Positions 32-10,315 of a stretch of DNA of 10,347 nt are shown here, in pieces (the stretch's first letter is position 1; every line of letters begins with the position of its first letter). The DNA comes from a virus (Duplodnaviria > Heunggongvirae > Uroviricota > Caudoviricetes), in IMG/VR virus record IMGVR_UViG_2695420380_000013. One strand, written 5' to 3'. A program made the translations under genes and the position numbers. The notes under the pieces are model-generated. The model made no database searches. It was not told where the DNA came from and saw only the letters and a list, made by a program, of their open reading frames with translations.

Positions 32-117
32 CCGCCACAGAACAATTATTGCTTTTGCCGTTGATGACAATAAAGTTTTTATCGCAGTGTCAGGGCGTGG
101 CGGATATCAAACTTTGG

Positions 118-1200
118 TCATTTTCTCTGGCTGATCTTTACCGGATAACCATCCCGAAGATCAATTAAGTGCTCCGGTTCAGAAGCAAACCATGCATAAG
201 ATCCCCACGCCAATTCTGGTATTGCCTTTTTAAAAGGCAGAGCACTTCTGTCCATAAATGCCGTAAGGAATGCAAGATTTTTCTCGCTGAACCCAGCGTC
301 AATAGCCAAATGAGTGAGAGTAACTTTTCGTTCCCTGTTTATAGGCCCATCTGTCGCAACTACTTCAGTGAAAACTACAAGCATGTCCGAACCCGTTCGG
401 TCCTCTCCCAAATCAATCAAAATAATATCTGGAAGTGCTTTTGAGGCATCAATATTCAGCCCCAATGCTTTTGCCAATACATCATCCTGAGCAACAACTT
501 TATTCCCGGATTCAGACAACCAGAGCACAGTTGGATTCTTAAGAAAATTAGGAGCAAAAACTTCGATGACGGCCTTAGCTATTGTACTTGACGGGCCCGG
601 AGCTAAAGTTCTCTTCTCTCCATTTGGGAAAGTGACGACTACGGCATCAGCAGCAATCACTGCCCCTGATTTCAATAAACGCAACCTAGCAAGAGCGGCT
701 TTGTTCAAATGATTTTCTTGCCAGGAACTTATTGCACTCAGCAGCGAATCTCCTTCAAGCCCGGCATCAAAGAGTGCTGCAAAAGAGCGATTCAAACTGT
801 AACGAGGACGAGAGGATGTGGTGGGTATACCTTTACGCTCAACAATTGCATTGCAAGGTATTAGGCCATTTTTTATAGTTTCATCACGTATTGGCTCACG
901 CGTATTTTCCGCATACCATGCATCAGCAGGCCTTATCTTTTGTTTAGAGAAAGTCATCTTTACCCAGCTTTCTCTGGACGCATCATCAGTAAGAGCAGCC
1001 TGCGAATCTCCCATACTTACAACCTGGCTGGGCCTTATCCATCGCCCCAGCCCCTCAACCGCACCAGCATAAAACATGACAAAAATTGTTTTTGCAGCTA
1101 TTTCCCGAATTAAATATCCACGATTCTCAGTCCCTTCAGGGAAAATTAATTGTAATCTTTCCCGGATAACATTCAATGGGGGAACAACAGGCAGATTCAT
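118..1200 (-). CDS. Candidate Type II restriction endonuclease (360 aa), partner of the upstream methyltransferase; family not established (possibly BsuBI/PstI-like)
   Basis: Long minus-strand ORF whose ATG (1200-1198) overlaps the methyltransferase stop (1199-1197) as ATGA, indicating translational coupling in an M-then-R operon. No ATPase or methyltransferase motifs. AT-rich like the methyltransferase gene. The endonuclease call rests on context; the family guess is from memory of the N-terminal region and is unverified. Confidence 0.55.
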   Translation of the reverse strand: MNLPVVPPLNVIRERLQLIFPEGTENRGYLIREIAAKTIFVMFYAGAVEGLGRWIRPSQVVSMGDSQAALTDDASRESWVKMTFSKQKIRPADAWYAENTREPIRDETIKNGLIPCNAIVERKGIPTTSSRPRYSLNRSFAALFDAGLEGDSLLSAISSWQENHLNKAALARLRLLKSGAVIAADAVVVTFPNGEKRTLAPGPSSTIAKAVIEVFAPNFLKNPTVLWLSESGNKVVAQDDVLAKALGLNIDASKALPDIILIDLGEDRTGSDMLVVFTEVVATDGPINRERKVTLTHLAIDAGFSEKNLAFLTAFMDRSALPFKKAIPELAWGSYAWFASEPEHLIDLRDGYPVKISQRK

Positions 1201-3029
1201 GCAATCATCACTCCATAGAAACCAGCGATAGTTCTCTCAATAATCCGTCTGTGGACGCCAGCATCAATTAACGATTGAATCTCCATCACCTGCTCCAGAG
1301 AAGGCAACGGGATTGAATTCAATTCATAGGCCGAAACAGCAACACTTCCGCTTATACACCTGAACGCCCGATCGACAACATGCGAATTAAGTAGCATATC
1401 AATAACATCAGGGCGAACCGCAGAGAACAATCCGTTTGAATATACAATATTAATATGGTTTTCAACTACTACGCCACCAGTTTCATCTATAAATCCCTGA
1501 GGTAAAATTGCCGCTAAAATCCTTCTGTCCTGTTCCTTCGATGTTGTCCGCTGAACAAGCACACATTCAGATTTTGTCACAAGGAAACCCTGTTGTGGGG
1601 TTATATCGATATAGGGAACATGATTTTTTCTGTCTGCACTAAAACGAAAACCAGCTGAAGTTATTGATTCCGCCCAGACTAATGGGTAGCTATTTTTTCC
1701 TTTCGTCGTACGCAACTGCGACTTAAATCGATTCCAGACTAACTGACCTGTAGAGACTGAGTATCCCAGATCAGCTAAACGCGTAGACATCTGTTTTAAT
1801 ACATTAAGAAAACAGGCATCATCTTTAACGCGTGGCAAAAGCCACGTTGCTCCACCTTTTTCTATATCAACATTACCTATTTTCTCAATTTTTGCTTTGT
1901 TCAACCCCTTAGGGACAAGTGAGGATACCTGGGCCCGAACTTTATGTTCTCCCGCCTTGAATGCTGTCAACATTGTTTCCTGGAGAACATCGTCAAAGAC
2001 CCCATCCCTGTCAGTGACGAAATCAAGGGCATACGGAGTAGTTTTTTCGGTCAAAAGGGTTCGCAGCGCGGTGAAATACTGCCCACCAAGAAAAGAAGTT
2101 GGCGTAAGAAATGCAATAACTCCTGTTTTCTCTTTAACCATGCGAACAGCTAAGTCGGTGAACAATCCATATAGATTTGCATGACCAAATAACGAACGAG
2201 AATATTTTTCTCTCGTTTTAATATCGAGAGTGACACGTCCGTAAGGCGGATTCCCTACCACAAGATCATAACCAGAAAATTTATCTTGCTGAAGCGCATC
2301 AGCAACAATAATTGTATCTTCAGGCAATCTACGTTTTACCTTTACACATAGTGGCATTAGTACAGATTCGAGCAATACCAAACTCATCCAAGCCGCAAAT
2401 GGATCGATTTCTATCCCCTTTAAACGACGACTGATTCTCCTCAACATCCATTCAGGGGAAGACCCCTTGTCTTTTTTTAACATTCGAATGGCTACTGGTG
2501 CCAAAAATGCACCGCCACCACACGCAGGATCAATAACCGATGCATGAGAAAAATCAACACCAGACTTTTCAGCCAGGTCCAAGAGACGCGCTACCAAAGG
2601 TGGGGGGGTATAGTAAGCCCCCAATTCCGAACGGTAAGCGGATGGCAGCATTACCGTATAAATTGACCCAATCAGATATCCAGCGTCCTCCGCCGGAAAT
2701 TGAGCAATAAGCTCACCTGTTCGTTCAGCGAGCTCGCGTGCATCACATGGAATGTCTTCTATGTAAACAGTGTGCGGTACTGCCCTCATTTTAATGCTGC
2801 TTTTTTGCTTTTTTGCAAGGGTATCCCAATATGCAGCTACGATGCTGAAGCAGTATGAGCGGGCATGCATCAACCTTGACTGCCCGGTTTTGTAATTGCC
2901 CGCATAACCTTTGGCCATGGCTTTACAAGTTTGATATCTTTCCAGATTAGAAAACTCATTATCTGTAAAAAAATCAAAATGTTGCACATTCATAATGTAA
3001 AATCCTAATGTATCAAACATGCGGGCCAT
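1197..3029 (-). CDS. N6-adenine-specific DNA methyltransferase, gamma-like motif order (610 aa from the first ATG; an alternative start at 2993 has a better-placed AGGA)
   Basis: Translation contains GAYYTPPPLVARLL (motif X-like), VIDPACGGGAFL (AdoMet-binding motif I) and VVGNPPYGR (catalytic NPPY motif IV), followed by a ~350-aa C-terminal region consistent with a target-recognition domain. Single uninterrupted ORF. Confidence 0.9.
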   Translation of the reverse strand: MARMFDTLGFYIMNVQHFDFFTDNEFSNLERYQTCKAMAKGYAGNYKTGQSRLMHARSYCFSIVAAYWDTLAKKQKSSIKMRAVPHTVYIEDIPCDARELAERTGELIAQFPAEDAGYLIGSIYTVMLPSAYRSELGAYYTPPPLVARLLDLAEKSGVDFSHASVIDPACGGGAFLAPVAIRMLKKDKGSSPEWMLRRISRRLKGIEIDPFAAWMSLVLLESVLMPLCVKVKRRLPEDTIIVADALQQDKFSGYDLVVGNPPYGRVTLDIKTREKYSRSLFGHANLYGLFTDLAVRMVKEKTGVIAFLTPTSFLGGQYFTALRTLLTEKTTPYALDFVTDRDGVFDDVLQETMLTAFKAGEHKVRAQVSSLVPKGLNKAKIEKIGNVDIEKGGATWLLPRVKDDACFLNVLKQMSTRLADLGYSVSTGQLVWNRFKSQLRTTKGKNSYPLVWAESITSAGFRFSADRKNHVPYIDITPQQGFLVTKSECVLVQRTTSKEQDRRILAAILPQGFIDETGGVVVENHINIVYSNGLFSAVRPDVIDMLLNSHVVDRAFRCISGSVAVSAYELNSIPLPSLEQVMEIQSLIDAGVHRRIIERTIAGFYGVMIA

Positions 3030-3089
3030 AACATCTCATGGTGGCGCATAGCAAACTGGCCCGAAGAATATCACGCACCAAGTCGATCT

Positions 3090-3103
3090 CATAACCCGTT
3101 ATG
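3090..3103. promoter_or_regulatory. Perfect 6-2-6 palindrome CATAAC-CC-GTTATG about 60 bp upstream of the methyltransferase start; candidate operator
   Basis: Read directly from the sequence (cataacccgttatg). Position between the upstream small ORF and the methyltransferase start codon. No recognisable sigma70 -35/-10 pair could be placed confidently nearby. Confidence 0.25.
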
Positions 3104-3243
3104 ACAATAAATCTTTGTAGCTGAACTCACTTGGTGATTTGTCAATCATTCCTGGCCTCCAGTTCGTCCTGAATCTCTTTATCGAGTTCACCGTATTTGT
3201 TAGTCCTCATCACTCACGACTTGACTTCCAGAAATAACCTTGA

Positions 3244-3600
3244 TTATTCGGGGCTATATTTTGTCACCCTGCGTATCCGCGCTTTCGCATTACGCTCAAT
3301 CTGGATTAGCTTTTCTATATTTTTTCGCCTTTCCCGCTCCTCCTGGCGCAAGAGCCTTACATCATCTGCCAGTCTGGTTTCTCTTTTCGCCACAGAGAGC
3401 ATCCAGTCAAATGGCTCCACAACTGCACCGCAAATTTTACAGCGGACCTGACGCTCTTTTTCGTCAACCCGGACAGAGGCGTGATGGCAATATGGTCTTT
3501 CCGATGGCTCATAAAGAAAATTAACCTGATTACGAGGGTTATCCTCTTTTACCGGAAATAAAACAATATTGCTTAACTCATCTTCTGGTTTTATTTCCAT
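3244..3600 (-). CDS. Hypothetical small protein (119 aa) with a zinc-ribbon-like CHH...CxxC motif and a basic coiled-coil-like C-terminus
   Basis: ATG at 3600 is preceded by a strong Shine-Dalgarno (AAGGAGAGGAGC then ATG). Translation MEIKPEDEL...YCHHASVRVDEKERQVRCKICGAVV...RLLRQEERERRKNIEKLIQIERNAKARIRR. Same strand as, and directly upstream of, the methyltransferase. The ORF track extends it to 3657, but that start lacks an RBS. Confidence 0.6.
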   Translation of the reverse strand: MEIKPEDELSNIVLFPVKEDNPRNQVNFLYEPSERPYCHHASVRVDEKERQVRCKICGAVVEPFDWMLSVAKRETRLADDVRLLRQEERERRKNIEKLIQIERNAKARIRRVTKYSPE

Positions 3601-3657
3601 GCTCCTCTCCTTTGATGCGAATGCCAGCGGTAATTGAAGCCTGATAGCTAATTTCAC

Positions 3658-3780
3658 TCACAGTACCGCCTCCTGAAAATCACCCTGATAGAAAGCCGGT
3701 ACACGCTGCATAACTTCACTCTTCCGGCACTCGCGACAGATTATGTTCTGATGTCTGTCGTAGCGGCGTATTTCTCCGTC
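3658..3780 (-). pseudogene. 3' remnant of a paralog of the hypothetical gene at 4200-4771, cut off at the N-run/IS1 junction
   Basis: Encodes DGEIRRYDRHQNIICRECRKSEVMQRVPAFYQGDFQEAVL, which matches the C-terminus of the 4200-4538 ORF (DGEIRRYDRRQNIICSECRKSEAMQRVLAFYQGNFQKVLL). The DNA at 3658-3780 aligns with 4200-4322 at roughly 85-90 percent identity. The upstream part is replaced by NNNNNNNN plus IS1 interior sequence. Confidence 0.6.
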
Positions 3781-3788
3781 NNNNNNNN
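3781..3788. other. Run of 8 N (unresolved bases or scaffold join) exactly at the junction between the phage-gene remnant and IS1 interior
   Basis: Literal n characters in the sequence. Confidence 0.95.
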
Positions 3789-4127
3789 GCCAGCGCTGGC
3801 GCGATTTAGCCCCGACATAGCCCCACTGTTCGTCCATTTCCGCGCAGACGATGACGTCACTGCCCGGCTGTATGCGCGAGGTTACCGACTGCGGCCTGAG
3901 TTTTTTAAGTGACGTAAAATCGTGTTGAGGCCAACGCCCATAATGCGTGCAGTTGCCATGTTTTACGGCAGTGAGAGCAGAGATAGCGCTGATGTCCGGC
4001 AGTGCTTTTGCCGTTACGCACCACCCCGTCAGTAGCTGAACAGGAGGGACAGCTGATAGAAACAGAAGCCACTGGAGCACCTCAAAAACACCATCATACA
4101 CTAAATCAGTAAGTTGGCAGCATCACC
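3789..4127 (-). mobile_element. IS1 fragment: IRL end plus insA region and 5' part of insB; truncated on the insB/IRR side, with an apparent internal deletion inside insA
   Basis: Ends with the IS1 IRL reverse complement at 4097-4127. The minus-strand translation contains the InsA N-terminus ([41 protein letters not shown]) and InsB residues ([52 protein letters not shown]). Relative to IS1 as I recall it, about 85 bp between ...GGCAACTGCA and CGCATTATGGGCG... are missing, which would frameshift insA. Only about 339 of 768 bp are present. Confidence 0.85.
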
Positions 4128-4199
4128 ACAGTGCTGAACTTAATTATTCAGATTTTGGATTATGCTTTCTCTTCACGAAGTTCCGATTGTTAATTTGGC

Positions 4200-4771
4200 T
4201 CACAACAGCACCTTCTGAAAATTACCCTGATAGAAAGCCAGTACACGCTGCATAGCTTCGCTCTTCCGGCACTCGCTACAGATTATGTTTTGACGCCTGT
4301 CGTAGCGGCGTATTTCTCCGTCTGGTAATGACCAGATAAGGTCAGGATCAACCACAGATGGTTTCTTCAGATTTGCCCTTGAGAGTTTTTTGCGGGCGTT
4401 TTGCCAGTCCTTACGCGCCTGTTCAGACGGGAATAACCCGTAACCAGAGTTGTATACATCGCCACTGGCAACCAGCTCTCTGGCGAGAACACTCATCAGA
4501 TATCTTGTCGCACCTGTCTTGGCTTCCAGTTGCCGCAACGTCTCGCGACCGCTCAGACGTACAAGTTCAACAACCTGCCCTTNNNNNNNNNNNNNNAGTT
4601 GTATACATCCCCACTGGCAACCAGCTCTCTGGCGAGAACGCTTATTAAATATCTTGTCGCCCCGGTTTTAGCTTCCAGTTGTCGTAACGTCTCGCGCCCA
4701 CTCTGGCGTACGAGTTCAACAACCTGCCCCTTAATTTTTTCCCGCTCTTCCTGTGTAAATACTTTTGCCAT
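4200..4771 (-). CDS. Hypothetical phage protein (gene X), reading frame interrupted by a diverged tandem duplication and a 14-N run
   Basis: ATG at 4771 (MAKVFTQEEREKIKGQVVELVRQSGRETLRQLEAKTGATRYLISVLARELVASGDVYN...), then the N-run, then a second copy of the same segment (RQLEAKTGATRYLMSVLARELVASGDVYNSGYGLFPSEQARKDW...NFQKVLL) ending at 4200. If the duplication were collapsed, a continuous protein of about 148 aa would result. No family recognised. Confidence 0.45.
4448..4732. repeat. Tandem duplication of a ~135-bp segment (4448-4582 and 4597-4732), copies roughly 88 percent identical, separated by 14 N
   Basis: Both units begin agttgtatacatc(g/c)ccactggcaaccagctctctggcgagaac and end ...gttcaacaacctgccc(c)tt. 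About 16 scattered mismatches, so not a simple read-level duplication. Confidence 0.75.
4583..4596. other. Run of 14 N at the junction of the two tandem repeat units
   Basis: Literal n characters. Confidence 0.95.
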
Positions 4772-4786: not shown

Positions 4787-5512
4787 TCACTTTTCCGACA
4801 CAATACGACCGGAGGAATCGACAATCTGTCGAACAATATCCCGGTGCTTGTTCAGCTCCCGCAACGCGGCGCAGACACGCTCCCACTTCTGGACATGACT
4901 TTTCGCCCGACGCAGTTCGCGGTTTGCCATATGCAGCGATGGTAAAACCAGGTCATCCGCTTGCGTTTCGGTGAACGATGGCAACGACTGCACAATGTCC
5001 GCCACAGTTTCTGTTTTAATTTCTTCCTGTGTTGCAGCTTCCTGTACCGGTAACGCAACACCTGCTGGCTGAGGAAAGACTTTACCATCCGTTTCCGCTA
5101 TGGATGCGGCTTTCGGCTCTGCCGGTAAATCAGCGCCCGGTATGCAGTACCGAAATTTACCGCCCTGATTCACGCGAATCAGACGCCCTTTGCTGATTGC
5201 CATGGCCAGCGATGAATTCGCCCGGCGGGAGGTAATCCCGAACATCAGTGCCAGCTCATCCGCCGTTTGTGGGCCATGTTGTTCAATCGCCTCAGTCAGC
5301 ATTTGCGCTGTCACTTTCGGTACCGGTGACACTGGTTCACTTTCACCAGCCTGAATCAGCCACCACATCGAACCCTTGTTATCCGCTTCACCACGGCGCT
5401 TCAGTTTCCACAGTTCGTTGACCGCATCTTCACGGCTGATTCCAAGGCGGGACGCCACCACATGTGAAGAGGCTCTTTTCAGTGCTTTCAGTGCGTCAAA
5501 TACAGTTTCCAT
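4787..5512 (-). CDS. Prophage protein (241 aa), DUF1627/YdaW-like, immediately downstream of the DnaC-like gene
   Basis: ATG at 5512 with GGAGG 8 nt upstream. Translation [41 protein letters not shown]... with a second similar helix-rich segment ([28 protein letters not shown]). Position after the DnaC-like gene matches Rac-like prophages. Family assignment is from memory and not verified. Confidence 0.55.
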
Positions 5513-5533
5513 TAAAACATCCTCCAACAAAAA

Positions 5534-5824
5534 TTACTTCACAACTCCCGGAAAGCTGACATTTGAACGCCAGCTATCCCAGTTAAACGTCACCCACCGA
5601 CAACCGTTCATGGTCATGCGGTCCATAATCCTCTCACCAAGAAGCGTGCTCATTGCGGCATGATTCAGGTTTGTTAACATCCCGACACTGCACAGTGATG
5701 CTGTCCGGCGATCAATTATCTGGTGCAATACCACCTGCTCGTTTTTCGTCTCCCGCTGAATGCCTATTTCATCCAGGACCAGCAAATCAACCCCGCAAAG
5801 CTCCTGTAAAAATTTTTCACCGGA
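5534..5824 (-). CDS. DnaC-like replicative helicase loader, C-terminal part only (5' portion lies in the 593-N run)
   Basis: Translation ...LLVLDEIGIQRETKNEQVVLHQIIDRRTASLCSVGMLTNLNHAAMSTLLGERIMDRMTMNGCRWVTFNWDSWRSNVSF closely parallels the E. coli DnaC C-terminus (Walker B LLVIDEIG, NQIVDRR, GMLTNSN, LGERVMDRM, FNWDSYR). Stop at 5534-5536. Confidence 0.85.
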   Translation of the reverse strand, partial: SGEKFLQELCGVDLLVLDEIGIQRETKNEQVVLHQIIDRRTASLCSVGMLTNLNHAAMSTLLGERIMDRMTMNGCRWVTFNWDSWRSNVSFPGVVK

Positions 5825-6417
5825 NNNNNNNNNNNNNNNNNNNNNNNNNNNNNNNNNNNNNNNNNNNNNNNNNNNNNNNNNNNNNNNNNNNNNNNNNNNN
5901 NNNNNNNNNNNNNNNNNNNNNNNNNNNNNNNNNNNNNNNNNNNNNNNNNNNNNNNNNNNNNNNNNNNNNNNNNNNNNNNNNNNNNNNNNNNNNNNNNNNN
6001 NNNNNNNNNNNNNNNNNNNNNNNNNNNNNNNNNNNNNNNNNNNNNNNNNNNNNNNNNNNNNNNNNNNNNNNNNNNNNNNNNNNNNNNNNNNNNNNNNNNN
6101 NNNNNNNNNNNNNNNNNNNNNNNNNNNNNNNNNNNNNNNNNNNNNNNNNNNNNNNNNNNNNNNNNNNNNNNNNNNNNNNNNNNNNNNNNNNNNNNNNNNN
6201 NNNNNNNNNNNNNNNNNNNNNNNNNNNNNNNNNNNNNNNNNNNNNNNNNNNNNNNNNNNNNNNNNNNNNNNNNNNNNNNNNNNNNNNNNNNNNNNNNNNN
6301 NNNNNNNNNNNNNNNNNNNNNNNNNNNNNNNNNNNNNNNNNNNNNNNNNNNNNNNNNNNNNNNNNNNNNNNNNNNNNNNNNNNNNNNNNNNNNNNNNNNN
6401 NNNNNNNNNNNNNNNNN
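5825..6417. other. Run of 593 N (gap or masked segment) covering the 5' part of the DnaC-like gene
   Basis: Literal n characters. ORF-track entries crossing it are artefacts of translating N as X. Confidence 0.95.
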
Positions 6418-6560
6418 AGAAATATGATTCACACAACGCTGGTTGTTCGTGCCGCTTACCGGGAGCAACCAGGGGTTTTCAAAATTCCGGTCCGGCCCAA
6501 AAAACGTCGTCGCTCGCTGAACAAATTCCGTTCCCGCTTTCCCGGTCGCCGCCAGGTATC

Positions 6561-6910
6561 NNNNNNNNNNNNNNNNNNNNNNNNNNNNNNNNNNNNNNNN
6601 NNNNNNNNNNNNNNNNNNNNNNNNNNNNNNNNNNNNNNNNNNNNNNNNNNNNNNNNNNNNNNNNNNNNNNNNNNNNNNNNNNNNNNNNNNNNNNNNNNNN
6701 NNNNNNNNNNNNNNNNNNNNNNNNNNNNNNNNNNNNNNNNNNNNNNNNNNNNNNNNNNNNNNNNNNNNNNNNNNNNNNNNNNNNNNNNNNNNNNNNNNNN
6801 NNNNNNNNNNNNNNNNNNNNNNNNNNNNNNNNNNNNNNNNNNNNNNNNNNNNNNNNNNNNNNNNNNNNNNNNNNNNNNNNNNNNNNNNNNNNNNNNNNNN
6901 NNNNNNNNNN
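6561..6910. other. Run of 350 N (gap or masked segment) covering the 3' part of the O-like replication gene
   Basis: Literal n characters. The 143-bp island at 6418-6560 between the two runs is open in two minus-strand frames, so the true reading frame and gene boundary cannot be decided. Confidence 0.95.
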
Positions 6911-7510
6911 ATCGGCTTTCAGCGCATACGCTGAATCGGCTTCCGGTGTCGAGCCTGCTGGCTGACCAGGATTGACGGTCTGAACATCCCCTGCCTGGTT
7001 CGTGGCGTTTTTTACGCCATGGACCATAGTGTTTTGATCTTCTTTATCTGTATCTTTATCTGTATCTGTCGTGACTCGTCGTGACATGTGCGTGACATTT
7101 CGTGACGCGCCGTGACAATCGCCATTTTGTTCCCGCTTTCTTTCCCTCTCTCGCTGCGCCCTCTTGCGCTCTGCAGGAGATTTTGCGGTTTGCGAAATAT
7201 TGCCGTTGTCCTCTTTAAGCACCTGGCGTTTTTCCCATCCAGTGATTAAATCACCATCAAGTACCCGCCCCTGCATCGTCTGCAAAATTGAATCAATTAC
7301 CTCTTCTGTCACGTCGAGCGCACTTGCCAAATCTTCTGTCGTGACATCAATGTGACCTCGCGTGACATTTCGTGACGCGCTCACCAGGAGGTGGATATAC
7401 ACTGCCATCACTGTTGCAATTGGCTGCCCTGACACCCTGGCAATTGTTCGCCACTTAGGGTCATTTGGCATGTCATGCCATAATCTGAGCCAGGCGTTAG
7501 CCATACTCAC
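6911..7510 (-). CDS. Lambdoid replication initiation protein (O-like replisome organizer), N-terminal part; 3' end unresolved in the N-run
   Basis: Minus-strand ORF starting GTG 7510 or ATG 7504 (MANAWLRLWHDMPNDPKWRTIARVSGQPIATVMAVYIHLLVSASRNVTRGHIDVTTEDLASALDVTEEVIDSILQ...). Sits directly upstream of the DnaC-like gene and downstream of the cro-like/YdaT-like genes. Contains iteron-like DNA repeats that encode a repetitive acidic linker (VTTDTDKDTDKED), as in lambda O. Confidence 0.65.
7041..7116. repeat. Iteron-like repeat cluster inside the O-like gene: 12-bp tandem tctttatctgta x2, then five CGTGAC hexamers; candidate phage replication origin
   Basis: Direct reading: tctttatctgtatctttatctgta at 7041-7064, and cgtgac at 7070, 7080, 7091, 7101 and 7111. 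The 21-mer gcgtgacatttcgtgacgcgc at 7090-7110 is repeated exactly at 7360-7380. AT-rich tract immediately adjacent (7031-7068). Confidence 0.5.
7340..7380. repeat. Second CGTGAC/TGTGAC hexamer cluster, including an exact 21-bp copy of 7090-7110
   Basis: cgtgac at 7340, tgtgac at 7351, cgtgac at 7361 and 7371. The 21-mer gcgtgacatttcgtgacgcgc at 7360-7380 is identical to 7090-7110. Lies in the 5' part of the O-like gene (the encoded ASRNVT peptide is repeated too). Confidence 0.45.
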
Positions 7511-7575: not shown

Positions 7576-8001
7576 TCAATGTACTGCCACAGCATTTCCT
7601 GCCGGGCCACCACGGTTCATCTGATTGAAACCGGCGATTGCCACTGCGACAAAATCATCAGCGTCTCTCACCAGTCGTTCATGCGTCTCCACCAGTTCCC
7701 GAAAATAAGCTGAACTGTGGCTGCGCATTCGAGCCACCAGCGGAGGTGGCATTGCCCTTTCGATCGCAGGTAACAACGCCTGAATTTTTTCAACAGCGTC
7801 AGGGGTGTCTTTATCCAGCCAACGGAAAATCTTTTGGGTGTTGAGATAAAGCGTGTTGTGCTTGCTGTCGTTATGCAGAACCGGAAACGTCATTCCCAGT
7901 TCGAAATAAACCCTGGTTATTTCAGCTGCCGGAACTTTTTCACCGTCCGGATGCGCCCAGGCTTTCATCGCCATGCGGATGTGTTCATGCTTGATTTTCA
8001 T
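7576..8001 (-). CDS. YdaT-like prophage protein (141 aa; occupies the cII position of the early-right operon)
   Basis: ATG at 8001 overlaps the stop of the upstream cro-like gene (ATGA). Translation MKIKHEHIRMAMKAWAHPDGEKVPAAEITRVYFELGMTFPV... Gene order cro-like, this gene, O-like, DnaC-like mirrors ydaS-ydaT-ydaU-ydaV of Rac-type prophages. Family name is from memory. Confidence 0.55.
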   Translation of the reverse strand: MKIKHEHIRMAMKAWAHPDGEKVPAAEITRVYFELGMTFPVLHNDSKHNTLYLNTQKIFRWLDKDTPDAVEKIQALLPAIERAMPPPLVARMRSHSSAYFRELVETHERLVRDADDFVAVAIAGFNQMNRGGPAGNAVAVH

Positions 8002-8261
8002 GAATCAACCCCCGCCGATGGTTGTGTGTTAGCCTGAAACTCAGCAGGCAAGCCGTCAGTTGGGTTGGGGTAGGTTTTACTGTCAATCTCATGTGGGGTC
8101 ACCACCCATCCCGTTGCTTCACACCAACGTAATATTTTTTCTCCTGTAAGTTTTGCACGCCCCGTTATAACGTGGCTGACCATCCCTTGGGATGCGCCAA
8201 CAATCTCAGCAAATGAACTCTGGGTTATATGAAAATGATGCAAATATTCTCCAAGATTCAT
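7998..8261 (-). CDS. Cro-like HTH DNA-binding protein (YdaS-like), 87 aa from the ATG at 8261 (ORF track extends to a TTG at 8288)
   Basis: ATG at 8261 preceded by AGGG about 6 nt upstream. Translation MNLGEYLHHFHITQSSFAEIVGASQGMVSHVITGRAKLTGEKILRWCEATG... contains a helix-turn-helix signature (QSSFAEIVGASQGMVSHVITGR). Transcribed divergently from the cI-like repressor gene. Confidence 0.75.
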   Translation of the reverse strand: MNLGEYLHHFHITQSSFAEIVGASQGMVSHVITGRAKLTGEKILRWCEATGWVVTPHEIDSKTYPNPTDGLPAEFQANTQPSAGVDS

Positions 8262-8297
8262 AATCCGCCCTATGTGATGTGTTACCAATGCATAATT

Positions 8298-8337: not shown

Positions 8338-8372
8338 TCAAAGTGATTAGCAATCTTATTAGAATTGGATGT

Positions 8373-8873
8373 ATGAAAAGAAAATCATTGTCAGACACCG
8401 ACCTCAACGCCGCCAGAAGACTGAAAGAAATCTGGATGGCAAAGAAATCTCAGTTGGGATTGACTCAGGAACGTGCGGCGGAAATTATGGGGTTTTCAAC
8501 ACAAGGGGCGGTAAGTCACTACCTAAATGGTCAAACCCCACTAAACCTTGAGGCTGTTCTAAAGTTTGCTGGCTTACTGAAAGTTCCCCCTGAGTCAATC
8601 AGGCCAGACATGGTAGATTTGCTGCAAATTGCAAGGATGTATTGTCGAGAACCACAGCAAGATAACATAGTCGCATTACCAGCAGACACAGAACAAACAG
8701 AGGATGAACTACCGTTTGCCGTAGAGCCGATGGAACGAGATTTAATCCATACGTTCAGAGCTTTTCCGAAAGAAGATCAAGAACACATGCTTCAGGAGAT
8801 GAAAGATAAAAAAGAATCAATGGATCGTACGGTTGCGCGGTGGTTAGCTGCACAAAAAGGCCGTCGCGCCTAA
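8373..8873 (+). CDS. cI-like HTH (XRE-family) repressor without a peptidase S24 domain (RacR/PaaR-like), 166 aa from the ATG at 8373
   Basis: Translation MKRKSLSDTDLNAARRLKEIWMAKKSQLGLTQERAAEIMGFSTQGAVSHYLNGQTPLNLEAVLKFAGLL... has a classic HTH (LGLTQERAAEIMGFSTQGAVSHYLNG) and an acidic C-terminal tail. No Ser/Lys autocleavage motifs seen. Divergent from the cro-like gene and directly upstream of the antitoxin/toxin pair. Confidence 0.8.
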   Translation: MKRKSLSDTDLNAARRLKEIWMAKKSQLGLTQERAAEIMGFSTQGAVSHYLNGQTPLNLEAVLKFAGLLKVPPESIRPDMVDLLQIARMYCREPQQDNIVALPADTEQTEDELPFAVEPMERDLIHTFRAFPKEDQEHMLQEMKDKKESMDRTVARWLAAQKGRRA

Positions 8874-8892: not shown

Positions 8893-9087
8893 ATGAGTAC
8901 AGTCCTTTCCCCAATGGTTTCAGAATTTGAGACAGTTGAGCAAGAAAATAGTTACAACGAATGGCTGCGGGCCAAAGTAGCAGCAAGCCTCGCGGATCCC
9001 CGCCCGGCGATTCCGCATGATGAGGTAATGGCGGAAATGGAACAAATTATTGCCCAAATTGCTGCTGCAACTCACAGAGGTGAATAA
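8893..9087 (+). CDS. Small antitoxin (64 aa) partnered with the ParE-family toxin; ParE-associated (PaaA-like) antitoxin candidate
   Basis: ATG at 8893 with a GAGGAG Shine-Dalgarno upstream. Its stop TAA (9085-9087) overlaps the toxin ATG (9087-9089) as TAATG. Size and position are typical of type II antitoxins. No clear ribbon-helix-helix signature, so the family is inferred from context. Confidence 0.65.
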   Translation: MSTVLSPMVSEFETVEQENSYNEWLRAKVAASLADPRPAIPHDEVMAEMEQIIAQIAAATHRGE

Positions 9088-9377
9088 TGTTACCCGTTTT
9101 ATGGCTACCATCTGCTCGTGATGATTTGCGCCAGATCGTAGCCTACATAGCTAAAGAAAATCCCGCGGCAGCACGCAGAATGAAAATTCGAATTGAAACA
9201 TCCGTTTTGCCGCTCACAGAGCATCCTTACCTGTATCCTCCAAGCGAGCGAGTTCTTGGTCTTCGTGAAATTGTAACTCATCCTAACTACATCATCCTTT
9301 ACCGAGTAACAGCATCAAGCATAGAAGTAGTAAATATTGTGCATTCTCGAAGACAGTATCCAGGCAAAAACAGTTAA
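9087..9377 (+). CDS. parE: ParE/RelE-superfamily toxin (96 aa)
   Basis: Translation MLPVLWLPSARDDLRQIVAYIAKENPAAARRMKIRIETSV...YIILYRVTASSIEVVNIVHSRRQ matches the conserved ParE pattern (DL..I..YIA..NP.AA.R....I......YRV.....EI.RVLH.R). Translationally coupled to the upstream antitoxin. Confidence 0.85.
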   Translation: MLPVLWLPSARDDLRQIVAYIAKENPAAARRMKIRIETSVLPLTEHPYLYPPSERVLGLREIVTHPNYIILYRVTASSIEVVNIVHSRRQYPGKNS

Positions 9378-9474: not shown

Positions 9475-9655
9475 GTTTCAGGCGTCAACCCACCCCGCCC
9501 CACAGAATGCAGGGCAATACTTCGAGTTACCAGACAGTGGTCAGGGGTTAAGTAGCCAGCCCGAGGCGTAAGAACATGACGGCAGGGTTCAATCTTTAAC
9601 TATGCAGCAGGTTTTTTGTTCCGCCACCCCGGCGTTAAGGGGAAATGAGGTCAGC

Positions 9656-9808
9656 ATGGATACTATCGATCTTGGCAACAACGAATCTCTGGTGTGCGGC
9701 GTGTTCCCTAACCAGGATGGAACGTTTACCGCCATGACGTATACCAAAAGCAAAACGTTTAAAACCGAATCTGGCGCGCGTTGCTGGTTAGCCAGAAACA
9801 CTGACTGA
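9656..9808 (+). CDS. Small prophage protein (50 aa), YdaF-like (DUF1391-like)
   Basis: ATG at 9656 preceded by GAGG 5 nt upstream. Translation MDTIDLGNNESLVCGVFPNQDGTFTAMTYTKSKTFKTESGARCWLARNTD. Family recalled from Rac-type prophages, unverified. The ORF track's longer start at 9602 lacks an RBS. Confidence 0.55.
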   Translation: MDTIDLGNNESLVCGVFPNQDGTFTAMTYTKSKTFKTESGARCWLARNTD

Positions 9809-9819
9809 TGAGGCTGACG

Positions 9820-10185
9820 ATGGAATTTAAAGATTTACCGTCTGATGTACAGAAAACAGCAGCTCATACATTGCATTCTGTGCTGCGAGAAATCGGGAAA
9901 GATATTGCAAGCGAGCCAGCAAAAGATCTGGCCCGGAAAATCAAGACCGCTTTCGTTGAGCTTTATAATGTTGGCACTGACTCTGAAACTGTCGAGACCA
10001 AGACCGTAAGTTCACCAATATTCTCACTTGAGCCAAGCGTATTATCAGGTGAAATATGCACCGAGATTTCCAGCGAACTGCTTCCGGTAATACGAGAAGC
10101 AATTCGCCGTCGCGGTTTGGATGGAAGTTATGATCATGACGTTCTGCAAGTTCTCAGGACAATGGTGACTTCACTGGGGATTTGA
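9820..10185 (+). CDS. Hypothetical prophage protein (121 aa from the ATG at 9820)
   Basis: ATG at 9820 preceded by GAGG (9810-9813) with a 6-nt spacer. Translation MEFKDLPSDVQKTAAHTLHSVLREIGKDIASEPAKDLARKIKTAFVELYNVG... No recognisable motif. Confidence 0.5.
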   Translation: MEFKDLPSDVQKTAAHTLHSVLREIGKDIASEPAKDLARKIKTAFVELYNVGTDSETVETKTVSSPIFSLEPSVLSGEICTEISSELLPVIREAIRRRGLDGSYDHDVLQVLRTMVTSLGI

Positions 10186-10315
10186 TCCCTGCGTCCTCTA
10201 AGCTTTTGATATAGCGGTCCTCCAAGAAGCGGTAAATTTTGTCGAAATCATCTTTTCCCTCTGGTTTATTCAGAGGATTACAGGACCCGTAAGTAGCGGC
10301 ATACATTTCAACCGT
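10154..10315 (-). pseudogene. Possible 3' remnant of a gene truncated by the right-hand IS1
   Basis: Minus-strand frame is open from the IS1 junction (10315) to a TGA at 10156-10154 (...TVEMYAATYGSCNPLNKPEGKDDFDKIYRFLEDRYIKSLEDAGIKSPVKSPLS). No start codon with an RBS inside the window. Overlaps the 3' end of the 9820-10185 gene by about 30 nt. Confidence 0.25.

Follow-up and report, generated by a model that had tools for sequence, protein, structure and literature searches.

A small zinc-ribbon-like gene next to a PstI-family restriction-modification cassette: a probable case of lambdoid prophage mosaicism

The window analyzed here, a 10,347-nucleotide stretch of tailed-virus DNA (IMG/VR record IMGVR_UViG_2695420380_000013), carries on its minus strand a short open reading frame (hereafter, the ORF) followed by the two genes of a Type II restriction-modification (R-M) system, with an inverted repeat in the intervening region. 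In the most likely interpretation, to which we assign a probability of about 0.85, the ORF is an older backbone gene of lambdoid prophages, the R-M pair is inserted cargo, and the adjacency of the two is historical. The ORF belongs to a conserved phage protein family, is delimited by mosaic boundaries and shows no linkage to R-M systems; a role in regulating the R-M system next to it is almost certainly excluded. A preliminary description of this DNA had singled out the ORF and the repeat beside the R-M genes and had proposed an unconventional regulator, an accessory defense component, or an unrelated phage moron; the observation is partly confirmed and the interpretation is partly supported. 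The inference of a controller from the combination of a small ORF, a palindrome, and R-M genes is tempting; in the present case, this combination emerges as a by-product of lambdoid mosaicism, and the ORF should not be passed on as a candidate for a new R-M regulator.

The ORF and its predicted product

The features of the ORF are as follows:
3244..3600, minus strand: zinc-ribbon-like ORF, ATG start, 118 aa (ORF list and full-length match to phrog_1621)
3602..3612, minus strand: Shine-Dalgarno region AAGGAGAGGAG of the ORF (direct reading of the sequence)
3430..3489, minus strand: zinc-knuckle pair C-x-H...C-x-x-C (predicted zinc-ribbon hairpin), codons 38-57 (conservation, weak Pfam match, structural model)
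3256..3414, minus strand: predicted long amphipathic basic helix, codons 63-115, with the motif NIEKLIQIERNAKARIRR (AF2 model, invariant residues)

Mechanical translation of the frame from 3657 to 3244 opens at a GTG codon and yields 137 aa; an internal ATG at 3600 yields 118 aa plus the stop codon. We take ATG 3600 to be the start because the homology block begins at 3630 in several unrelated prophages and because the N-terminus, M-x-x-E-T-E-x-E-L-S-N-V-V-x-F-P, is kept across genera (conserved residues M1, E6, E8, L9, N11, F15, and P16). The 137-aa form starting at GTG 3657 was rejected, given that neither the homology block nor the conserved N-terminus extends upstream of 3630. The ORF that was described previously is real, except that its stated length of 119 aa corresponds to 119 codons including the stop codon and the protein consists of 118 aa. 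The strong ribosome-binding site is confirmed, with AGGAG at 3611-3607 and a spacing of 6 nt to the ATG, as is the location of the ORF 5' of the R-M genes on the same strand, with 214 nt separating it from the methyltransferase gene.

The protein is a member of phrog_1621 (profile match with E = 1.1e-54, residues 1-115 aligned to profile positions 1-118 of 134), a family that has phrog_8538 and phrog_4865 as relatives and shares with the ORF its length and its phage context. Thus, the ORF is already catalogued as a phage family, albeit one that carries no assigned function, and all homologs of the ORF are annotated as hypothetical. A profile search matches 1,625 representative clusters (50% identity) at E ≤ 0.001, and the homologs span Enterobacterales. 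We found nothing in the literature on phrog_1621, WP_000403785, WP_005140877, or any lambdoid zinc-ribbon protein of the nin region.

The CHH-X14-CxxC motif of the preliminary description is present, with a spacing of X13 instead of X14: the pattern is C38-H39-H40-X13-C54-x-x-C57, in which the four putative ligands C38, H40, C54, and C57 show no variation among 26 homologs and are conserved to at least 90% across 33 distant members, and H39 is not conserved. The AlphaFold model (mean pLDDT 71.5) consists of a disordered acidic N-terminus, a small hairpin formed by strands 43-46 and 51-54 between the two knuckles, and a single 53-residue helix (residues 63-115, pLDDT up to 95), in which hydrophobic residues occupy 10 of the 15 a/d positions of the heptad register. 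The basic helical tail reported earlier is borne out, with 12 K+R vs 6 D+E in the C-terminal 35 residues, that is, a net charge of +6. Distant members (~30% identity) retain C-x-H…C-x-x-C-G, with [DE]-P-F-[DE] directly after the second knuckle, as well as, toward the end of the helix, E-R-N-x-K-A-R-[IL]-R-R. The signature of the family is clear, namely C-x-H…C-x-x-C-G-x-x-[IVL]-[DE]-P-F plus E-R-N-x-K-A-R-[IL]-R-R.

Profile and structure searches, which the preliminary description had suggested, identified the family and yielded no significant fold match. The best Pfam match is Zn_Ribbon_TF (PF08271; E = 1.6e-4, 21.6 bits, under the gathering cut-off of 29 bits), and the best Foldseek match in the PDB is 1pft, the N-terminal domain of TFIIB (E = 0.19, probability 0.82, in a region of the model with a pLDDT of only ~72-77). 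Foldseek searches of the PDB and BFVD returned no match at E <= 0.001, a long helix with a tiny zinc ribbon producing low-information matches, and the sequence search of the PDB gave non-significant hits only (S27e, E = 0.57; bS21m, E = 0.85). As in the TFIIB-type zinc ribbon (PF08271) and S27e, the two knuckles flank a beta-hairpin; unlike the TFIIB-type ribbon, the first knuckle is C-x-H rather than C-x-x-C, and what follows is a long basic helix without cyclin-fold domains. None of the NCBIfam and PADLOC models match the ORF. The absence of a helix-turn-helix (HTH) domain, as described previously, holds both for Pfam, where no HTH family and no Lar restriction-alleviation family (PF14354) match at E <= 0.1, and for the model, which comprises a beta-hairpin and a single helix. 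Pfam scans of longer distant members of the family produced only weak, sub-threshold matches to DUF6118, and single-protein scans of viral sequences with P0150, P0134, P0164, and P0137 found no relatives.

The protein would combine a Cys-His-Cys-Cys zinc ribbon with an amphipathic helix of ~50 residues that probably oligomerizes as a coiled coil and would present the invariant basic patch E-R-N-x-K-A-R-I-R-R. We infer zinc binding, oligomerization, a binding activity, and expression from pR for this product, which probably acts early, as a zinc-ribbon oligomer with nucleic acid or a host protein as its binding partner. A scheme in which the helix oligomerizes and, in early lytic growth, contacts nucleic acid or a host protein through the basic patch, alone or together with the zinc ribbon, is put forward tentatively and may well not hold. 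The large and well-conserved phrog_1621 family appears to be a reasonable, low-priority target for functional work.

Read on its minus strand, the window looks like the early rightward operon of a lambdoid prophage of the Rac/Qin type:
8343-8873, plus strand: cI-like repressor gene, facing the minus-strand early genes
7998-8288, minus strand: cro-like gene
7576-8001, minus strand: YdaT-like gene
6479-7510, minus strand: replisome organizer gene
5534-6436, minus strand: gene for a DnaC/P-like ATPase
4787-5530, minus strand: DUF1627 gene

DUF977 and Ren-like pieces lie between the DUF1627 gene and the ORF on the minus strand, where they are followed by the ORF, the methyltransferase gene, and the endonuclease gene, in this order. 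The ORF would be an accessory early gene of the rightward operon, located after cro, the YdaT-like gene, the O/P replication genes, DUF1627, and DUF977, and would predate the R-M genes. Divergent homologs reside between NinG/NinH/RusA/YbcO and antiterminator Q or, in the early-left region, behind ead/Ea22 genes; these are the usual settings in Klebsiella, Yersinia, Serratia, Salmonella, and metagenomic phages, and members of the family apparently are often encoded just upstream of Q. Recurrent fusions of the homologs to Ead/Ea22-like N-termini (P0006, P0270, P0271, P0273) fit the frequent location directly after ead/Ea22 genes.

The R-M cassette and the mosaic boundaries

The following features define the R-M genes and their junctions:
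1197..3029, minus strand: Type II N6-adenine methyltransferase, Eco57I/N6_Mtase type (Pfam; PADLOC MTase_II PDLC03338, E = 1.8e-300)
118..1200, minus strand: BsuBI/PstI-family Type II endonuclease (Pfam BsuBI_PstI_RE_N and BsuBI_PstI_RE; PADLOC REase_II, E = 2.8e-128)
3030..3243, minus strand: 5' leader/promoter region of the R-M genes, assigned to the cassette rather than to the backbone
90..3228, minus strand: approximate extent of the apparently inserted R-M cargo cassette (alignment with R-M-free relatives)
3244..3630, minus strand: mosaic module, the ORF with its ribosome-binding site, common to many R-M-free prophages

PADLOC calls the methyltransferase and the endonuclease as a standard Type II pair, and the family assignment suggests that this pair recognizes CTGCAG. 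The start of the endonuclease gene overlaps the stop of the methyltransferase gene by 4 nt. An alternative methyltransferase start is available at ATG 2993; homologs align from residue 7-13, and some gene calls correspond to the 598-aa form. We compared this system with 54 homologous loci from other bacteria and archaea, with methyltransferases that are 40-67% identical (two weaker partial matches aside). The endonuclease gene is directly downstream of the methyltransferase gene (M→R) in 44 of these 54 loci. None of the 54 contains a homolog of the ORF within ±4 kb of the R-M genes (best tblastn E = 0.068) or the CATAAC…GTTATG repeat upstream of the methyltransferase gene, and no alternative repeat is shared; nor is any upstream ORF conserved across the 51 usable homologous loci. 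Therefore, this R-M family works as a bare M→R operon. The conservation of the palindrome upstream of homologous methyltransferases, which the preliminary description had raised as a check, is contradicted by its absence from all 54 loci of other taxa.

The converse comparison, starting from the ORF, gives the same picture. The DNA of positions 2900-3720 has matches in 1,933 of the 5,426 complete Escherichia coli genomes, and the match extends over 80% or more of the query at just two places; the 5' region of the methyltransferase gene is found in just the same two E. coli genomes. In the other E. coli matches listed, the similarity ends at query positions 481-495, that is, window positions 3240-3226, just past the stop codon of the ORF. 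Both E. coli genomes with the methyltransferase have the ORF directly upstream, with different genes further upstream. In a typical R-M-free locus (L002), the ORF is followed by DUF7167, small hypothetical genes, and hokD. Among the viral contigs, 78 close loci with at least 600 nt of downstream sequence were counted, and this sequence falls into eight unrelated classes. The R-M cassette is one of these classes, with five loci, all carrying a 99-100% identical allele; the first downstream genes in the other classes encode DUF7167, a protein with a weak Mom-like match, and unannotated proteins. The census of neighbors is a sample of about 18 independent contexts. The exact allele of the ORF that is joined to the R-M genes occurs in about 2,190 collection blocks, which come from one IS1-rich, ~4.8-Mb clone named Shigella sonnei, and the window is 99.9-100% identical to the loci of this clone; because these blocks represent a single clone, we counted the linkage of the ORF with the R-M genes as a single evolutionary event. 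Co-occurrence of the ORF with the R-M genes, on which the preliminary description had wanted its proposal to be checked, therefore amounts to 2/1,933 E. coli genomes, 0/54 R-M loci, and 1/8 viral downstream contexts. Essentially, the homologs are found in prophage early and nin regions without R-M neighbors, which is the distribution that had been named in advance as arguing against a functional link.

The mosaic boundaries coincide with gene edges. Around the ORF, exactly 3630..3244 of the window is similar to the R-M-free prophages L072, L073, and L060, and the stretch that resembles L002, L074, and L075 reaches to 3229-3218, so that the left junction of the cassette lies at 3244-3218. The right junction is near position 90: positions 82..32 of the window match the ParE-side backbone of the same R-M-free prophages, L072, L073, and L060. 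Accordingly, the cassette has the ORF module (3630-3244) as one neighbor and, as the other, the ParE side of a ParDE module also present in R-M-free prophages.

One of the E. coli loci (strain VL7S7, L003) differs from the window in that DUF4406 and ead/Ea22 are upstream of the ORF. Compared with the window, this locus shows the following divergence:
ORF module, 3630-3244: 15/387 differences, 96.1% identity
leader, 3243-3030: 0/214 differences, 100% identity
methyltransferase gene: 13/1833 differences, 99.3% identity
endonuclease gene: 8/1079 differences, 99.3% identity

The contrast in divergence between the ORF module and the cassette (odds ratio 6.0, Fisher p = 1.9e-6) points, therefore, to a recombination junction at the stop codon of the ORF. 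These alignments indicate that the cassette and the repeat within it have traveled separately from the ORF allele. We propose that a self-contained ~3.1-kb PstI-family Type II cassette, with its 214-nt leader and the repeat, was inserted by recombination into a variable cargo slot between the ORF and the ParDE module, and that this insertion would have occurred in a single lineage, which includes the S. sonnei clone and two E. coli genomes. If the cassette was inserted beside a pre-existing ORF, the juxtaposition is historical and not functional. Of the earlier proposal of an unrelated phage moron, the unrelated phage gene survives with the roles exchanged: the moron is the R-M cassette, and the ORF belongs to the older backbone. 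A further outcome is the location of a cargo slot in Rac/Qin-like prophages, between the ORF and the ParDE module. Depending on the strain, this slot contains an R-M system, HNH genes, P4-cII-like/Beta_protein genes, hok genes, or others.

The inverted repeat and alternative explanations

The repeat is located within the leader:
3089..3104, no strand assigned: interrupted inverted repeat TCATAAC-CC-GTTATGA, arms of 7+7 nt

The distance from the repeat to the annotated start codon of the methyltransferase gene downstream (ATG 3029) is about 60 nt. It was previously described as the perfect palindrome CATAAC-CC-GTTATG; the repeat exists and is slightly longer than described, and since its 2-nt center, CC, is not self-complementary, it should be called an interrupted inverted repeat instead of a perfect palindrome. 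Counting all inverted repeats with arms of at least 7 nt and loops of at most 8 nt, the window contains nine, vs 6.0 ± 3.0 in dinucleotide shuffles, and 9% of the shuffled 214-nt intergenic regions hold at least one such repeat; the full pattern, at <=3 mismatches, occurs once in the window. The repeat is, then, at the level expected by chance and lineage-specific. The half-site CATAAC/GTTATG was seen eight times vs 4.0 ± 1.8 expected, and 9 of the 200 shuffles reach eight, a marginal local excess that was spotted post hoc. The leader is 100% identical in L001 and L003 and absent from R-M-free prophages; it has no Rfam match, and its RNA fold is no better than that of shuffles (z = +0.25). A scan of positions 2900-3750 detected no consensus sigma-70 promoter and no minus-strand terminator. 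The possibility that the repeat itself serves as the terminator of the ORF was rejected, given its 2-nt loop, its AT-rich stem, and the lack of a T-run. Without a terminator between the ORF and the methyltransferase gene, read-through co-transcription is possible, an observation that runs counter to the main interpretation.

Several alternatives to historical juxtaposition have to be considered. The zinc-ribbon protein could bind the repeat and time or tune the expression of the methyltransferase and the endonuclease in the manner of a C protein, that is, be an unconventional R-M controller that uses the palindrome, as envisaged in the preliminary description. Such a role would agree with the placement of the ORF on the same strand, 214 nt upstream of the methyltransferase gene with no detected terminator between them, with the position of the repeat close to the methyltransferase ATG, with the basic helix as a plausible nucleic acid-binding element, and with the presence of the ORF in both E. 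coli genomes that carry the methyltransferase. However, the ORF almost never adjoins R-M genes and homologous R-M pairs never come with the ORF or the repeat, the histories of the cassette and the ORF differ, the repeat is at chance level, and the layout is wrong for a C protein, with no HTH, an ORF that precedes M and not R, and a sole repeat downstream of the ORF. Furthermore, an ORF in the pR operon would be repressed in the lysogen while the R-M system must be on; the cassette would have to use its own leader to protect the lysogen, which further argues against a controller. We consider such a role highly improbable. A lineage-specific variant, in which read-through of the early operon combined with binding of the helix to the repeat was co-opted to couple R-M expression to prophage induction, seems to us a very long shot as well. 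Should co-option prove true, it would reveal a non-HTH, zinc-ribbon type of R-M regulator and, more broadly, the family of 1,625 clusters could be an unrecognized class of phage nucleic acid-binding regulators.

It is also conceivable, if quite unlikely, that the ORF encodes an accessory defense or anti-defense factor tied to DNA methylation, for example, a Lar/Ral-like restriction alleviation protein, and is kept near methyltransferases. Lar is a small zinc-binding early protein, and the product of the ORF is likewise a small, predicted zinc-binding early protein. In the locus of a distant homolog (L171), an orphan N6_N4 methyltransferase directly follows the ORF; in another lineage (L167-170), two methyltransferases are encoded 2-3 genes upstream; in L175, Dam is encoded five genes upstream; and in L179, a weak Lar_restr_allev match is directly upstream. 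Nevertheless, the ORF itself has no PADLOC or Pfam Lar match, most of its contexts include no nearby methyltransferase, and those methyltransferases that are nearby belong to four unrelated classes, at varying distances and on different sides. Methyltransferase genes are common in phage early regions. Given the unrelated classes, the variable positions, and this general abundance, we treated the methyltransferases near the ORF homologs as background. Finally, the repeat could be an operator of the cassette itself, independent of the ORF, overlapping a promoter and mediating autoregulation by the methyltransferase or by the N-terminal HTH domain of the endonuclease. The repeat is inside the leader, which is 100% conserved in all copies, the endonuclease does contain a Pfam 'HTH domain', and a further copy of the half-site GTTATG is found where the methyltransferase gene is annotated to start. 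In addition, the right arm of the repeat is about 17-18 nt upstream of TGaTATTCT, which, as read by eye, may be an extended -10-like element. Against this role stand the absence of the repeat from all 54 homologous systems, its chance-level occurrence, the lack of a consensus promoter in the scan, and the marginal, post hoc character of the half-site excess, and the copies of the cassette are too alike to reveal selective constraint; on balance, we regard an operator function as unlikely.

Comparison with known systems

Classical C proteins form dimers, contain an HTH of the Xre type, and are co-transcribed with the endonuclease gene (PMC2175313). They act on paired C-boxes upstream of their own gene, with the C-box GACT-N3-AGTC (PMC2175313). 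The ORF resembles C proteins such as C.PvuII, C.AhdI, and C.Esp1396I in its small size, its location upstream of R-M genes in the same orientation, and the proximity of a palindromic sequence. Unlike these, its product has no HTH, its gene precedes M and not R, and the ORF does not co-occur with R-M systems; unlike the C-boxes, the repeat at 3089-3104 is single, follows the ORF instead of preceding it, and bears no relation to GACT-N3-AGTC. The statement of the preliminary description that this is not a classical C protein is upheld on each of these counts: HTH, position before the endonuclease gene, paired C-boxes, and R-M co-occurrence.

Another parallel is provided by the accessory genes of the lambdoid nin and exo-xis regions (NinE/F/G/H, YlcG, Ea22, orf63, orf73), with which the ORF shares the neighborhood, just upstream of Q or beside ead/Ea22, as well as the small size, the dispensable appearance, and the exchange as a mosaic module. 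At the sequence level, no relationship between the ORF and any of the named nin or exo-xis proteins could be detected.

The presence of PstI-family R-M cargo in lambdoid prophages is already documented: the pair EcoGIII (CTGCAG) is carried as cargo by lambdoid Stx2a prophages (PMC3893438). Like EcoGIII, the system described here is an M+R pair of the PstI family residing as cargo in a lambdoid prophage; unlike in EcoGIII, the methyltransferase occupies another position in the prophage, and the two methyltransferases are ~25% identical over about half the length of the protein. In Stx2a phages with EcoGIII, a homolog of the ORF is located ~9.5 kb from the R-M genes.

The zinc-ribbon protein and the restriction-modification family in other genomes

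Stx2a-converting phages encode both a homolog of the zinc-ribbon ORF product (95% identical) and a distantly related methyltransferase, which is probably an EcoGIII-type PstI-family gene. In these phages, the two genes are not adjacent but lie about 9.5 kb apart, as exemplified by Stx2_112991.

Features in Stx2a phage Stx2_112991 (LC645442.1)
6811-7164, homolog of the zinc-ribbon ORF
16662-17681, methyltransferase

A recurrent arrangement among the homologous proteins combines, in one ORF, an Ead/Ea22-like N-terminal domain with the zinc-ribbon protein (P0006, P0010, P0122, P0270, P0271, and P0273). These fusion proteins are about 200-256 aa long, and one of them is plasmid-borne. The fusions may be frameshift artefacts or may be genuine, in which case they would be a hint of some functional connection to Ead/Ea22.

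When the upstream 1.2 kb was compared, homologous restriction-modification pairs of marine gammaproteobacteria (loci L005, L007, L009, L010, L014, L017, and L019) were found to have upstream sequence in common. In L007, as well as in L047, another locus with homologous genes, an upstream ORF looks, by our reading of the sequence, like the C-terminal portion of a tyrosine recombinase, a hint that this cassette family may have a mobile or integron-like setting. CTGCAG, the presumed recognition sequence of a PstI-family system, occurs at a single site in the 10.3-kb window, at 7171.

The methyltransferase gene and the CATAAC/GTTATG half-site

The start of the methyltransferase, within 2991-3029 of the window, is ambiguous. 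The PGAP start is the ATG at 3029, yielding a protein of 610 aa; some gene calls place the start at the ATG at 2993 (598 aa), with AGGA 9 nt upstream, and the alignment of homologs to the methyltransferase begins only at residues 7-13. The annotated start codon is overlapped by a copy of the CATAAC/GTTATG half-site (3027-3032). Altogether, the window contains 8 copies of this half-site vs 4.0 +/- 1.8 expected, 5 of them in 2903-3714; 8 copies were reached in 9 of 200 shuffles. The excess, which was spotted post hoc, is marginal.

In two assemblies of the Shigella sonnei clone, L064 (4608-6403) and L066 (4572-6402), the methyltransferase is broken into two ORFs, of 133 and 428 aa and of 145 and 416 aa, respectively. 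Despite the split, the endonuclease is intact in both (360 aa). Either the split results from a sequencing error, or the endonuclease is inactive or tolerated.

Surroundings and edges of the cassette

Comparison of the loci indicates that the interval between DUF977 and the zinc-ribbon ORF is longer in the window than in the clonal S. sonnei loci L062 and L065.

Extra material and N runs in the window
3781-3788, N run
3789-4127, sequence
4185-4580, sequence
4583-4596, N run
5825-6417, N run
6561-6910, N run

Part of the extra material consists of IS1 fragments, matching the IS1 that is present 3' of the endonuclease in L062; the extra material also holds a second copy of DUF977 (90% identity), and short N runs lie at its edges. 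It may have arisen as an artefact of scaffolding or masking, or through a rearrangement mediated by IS1.

A toxin-antitoxin pair lies beyond the cI-like gene:
8893-9377, + strand, ParD-like antitoxin and RelE/ParE toxin

Related prophages carry a second ParE/ParD pair on the far side of the restriction-modification cassette (9641-10215 in the cassette-bearing prophage locus L001). At this cassette/ParE-side junction (region 32-90), about 68 nt of L001 are missing from the window between positions 90 and 87, and in the S. sonnei loci, IS1 lies shortly beyond the junction.

Reading by eye shows a 22-codon ORF in the cassette leader, at its left end:
3141-3209, - strand, MRTNKYGELDKEIQDELEARND

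This short ORF may be what is left of a gene that was displaced.
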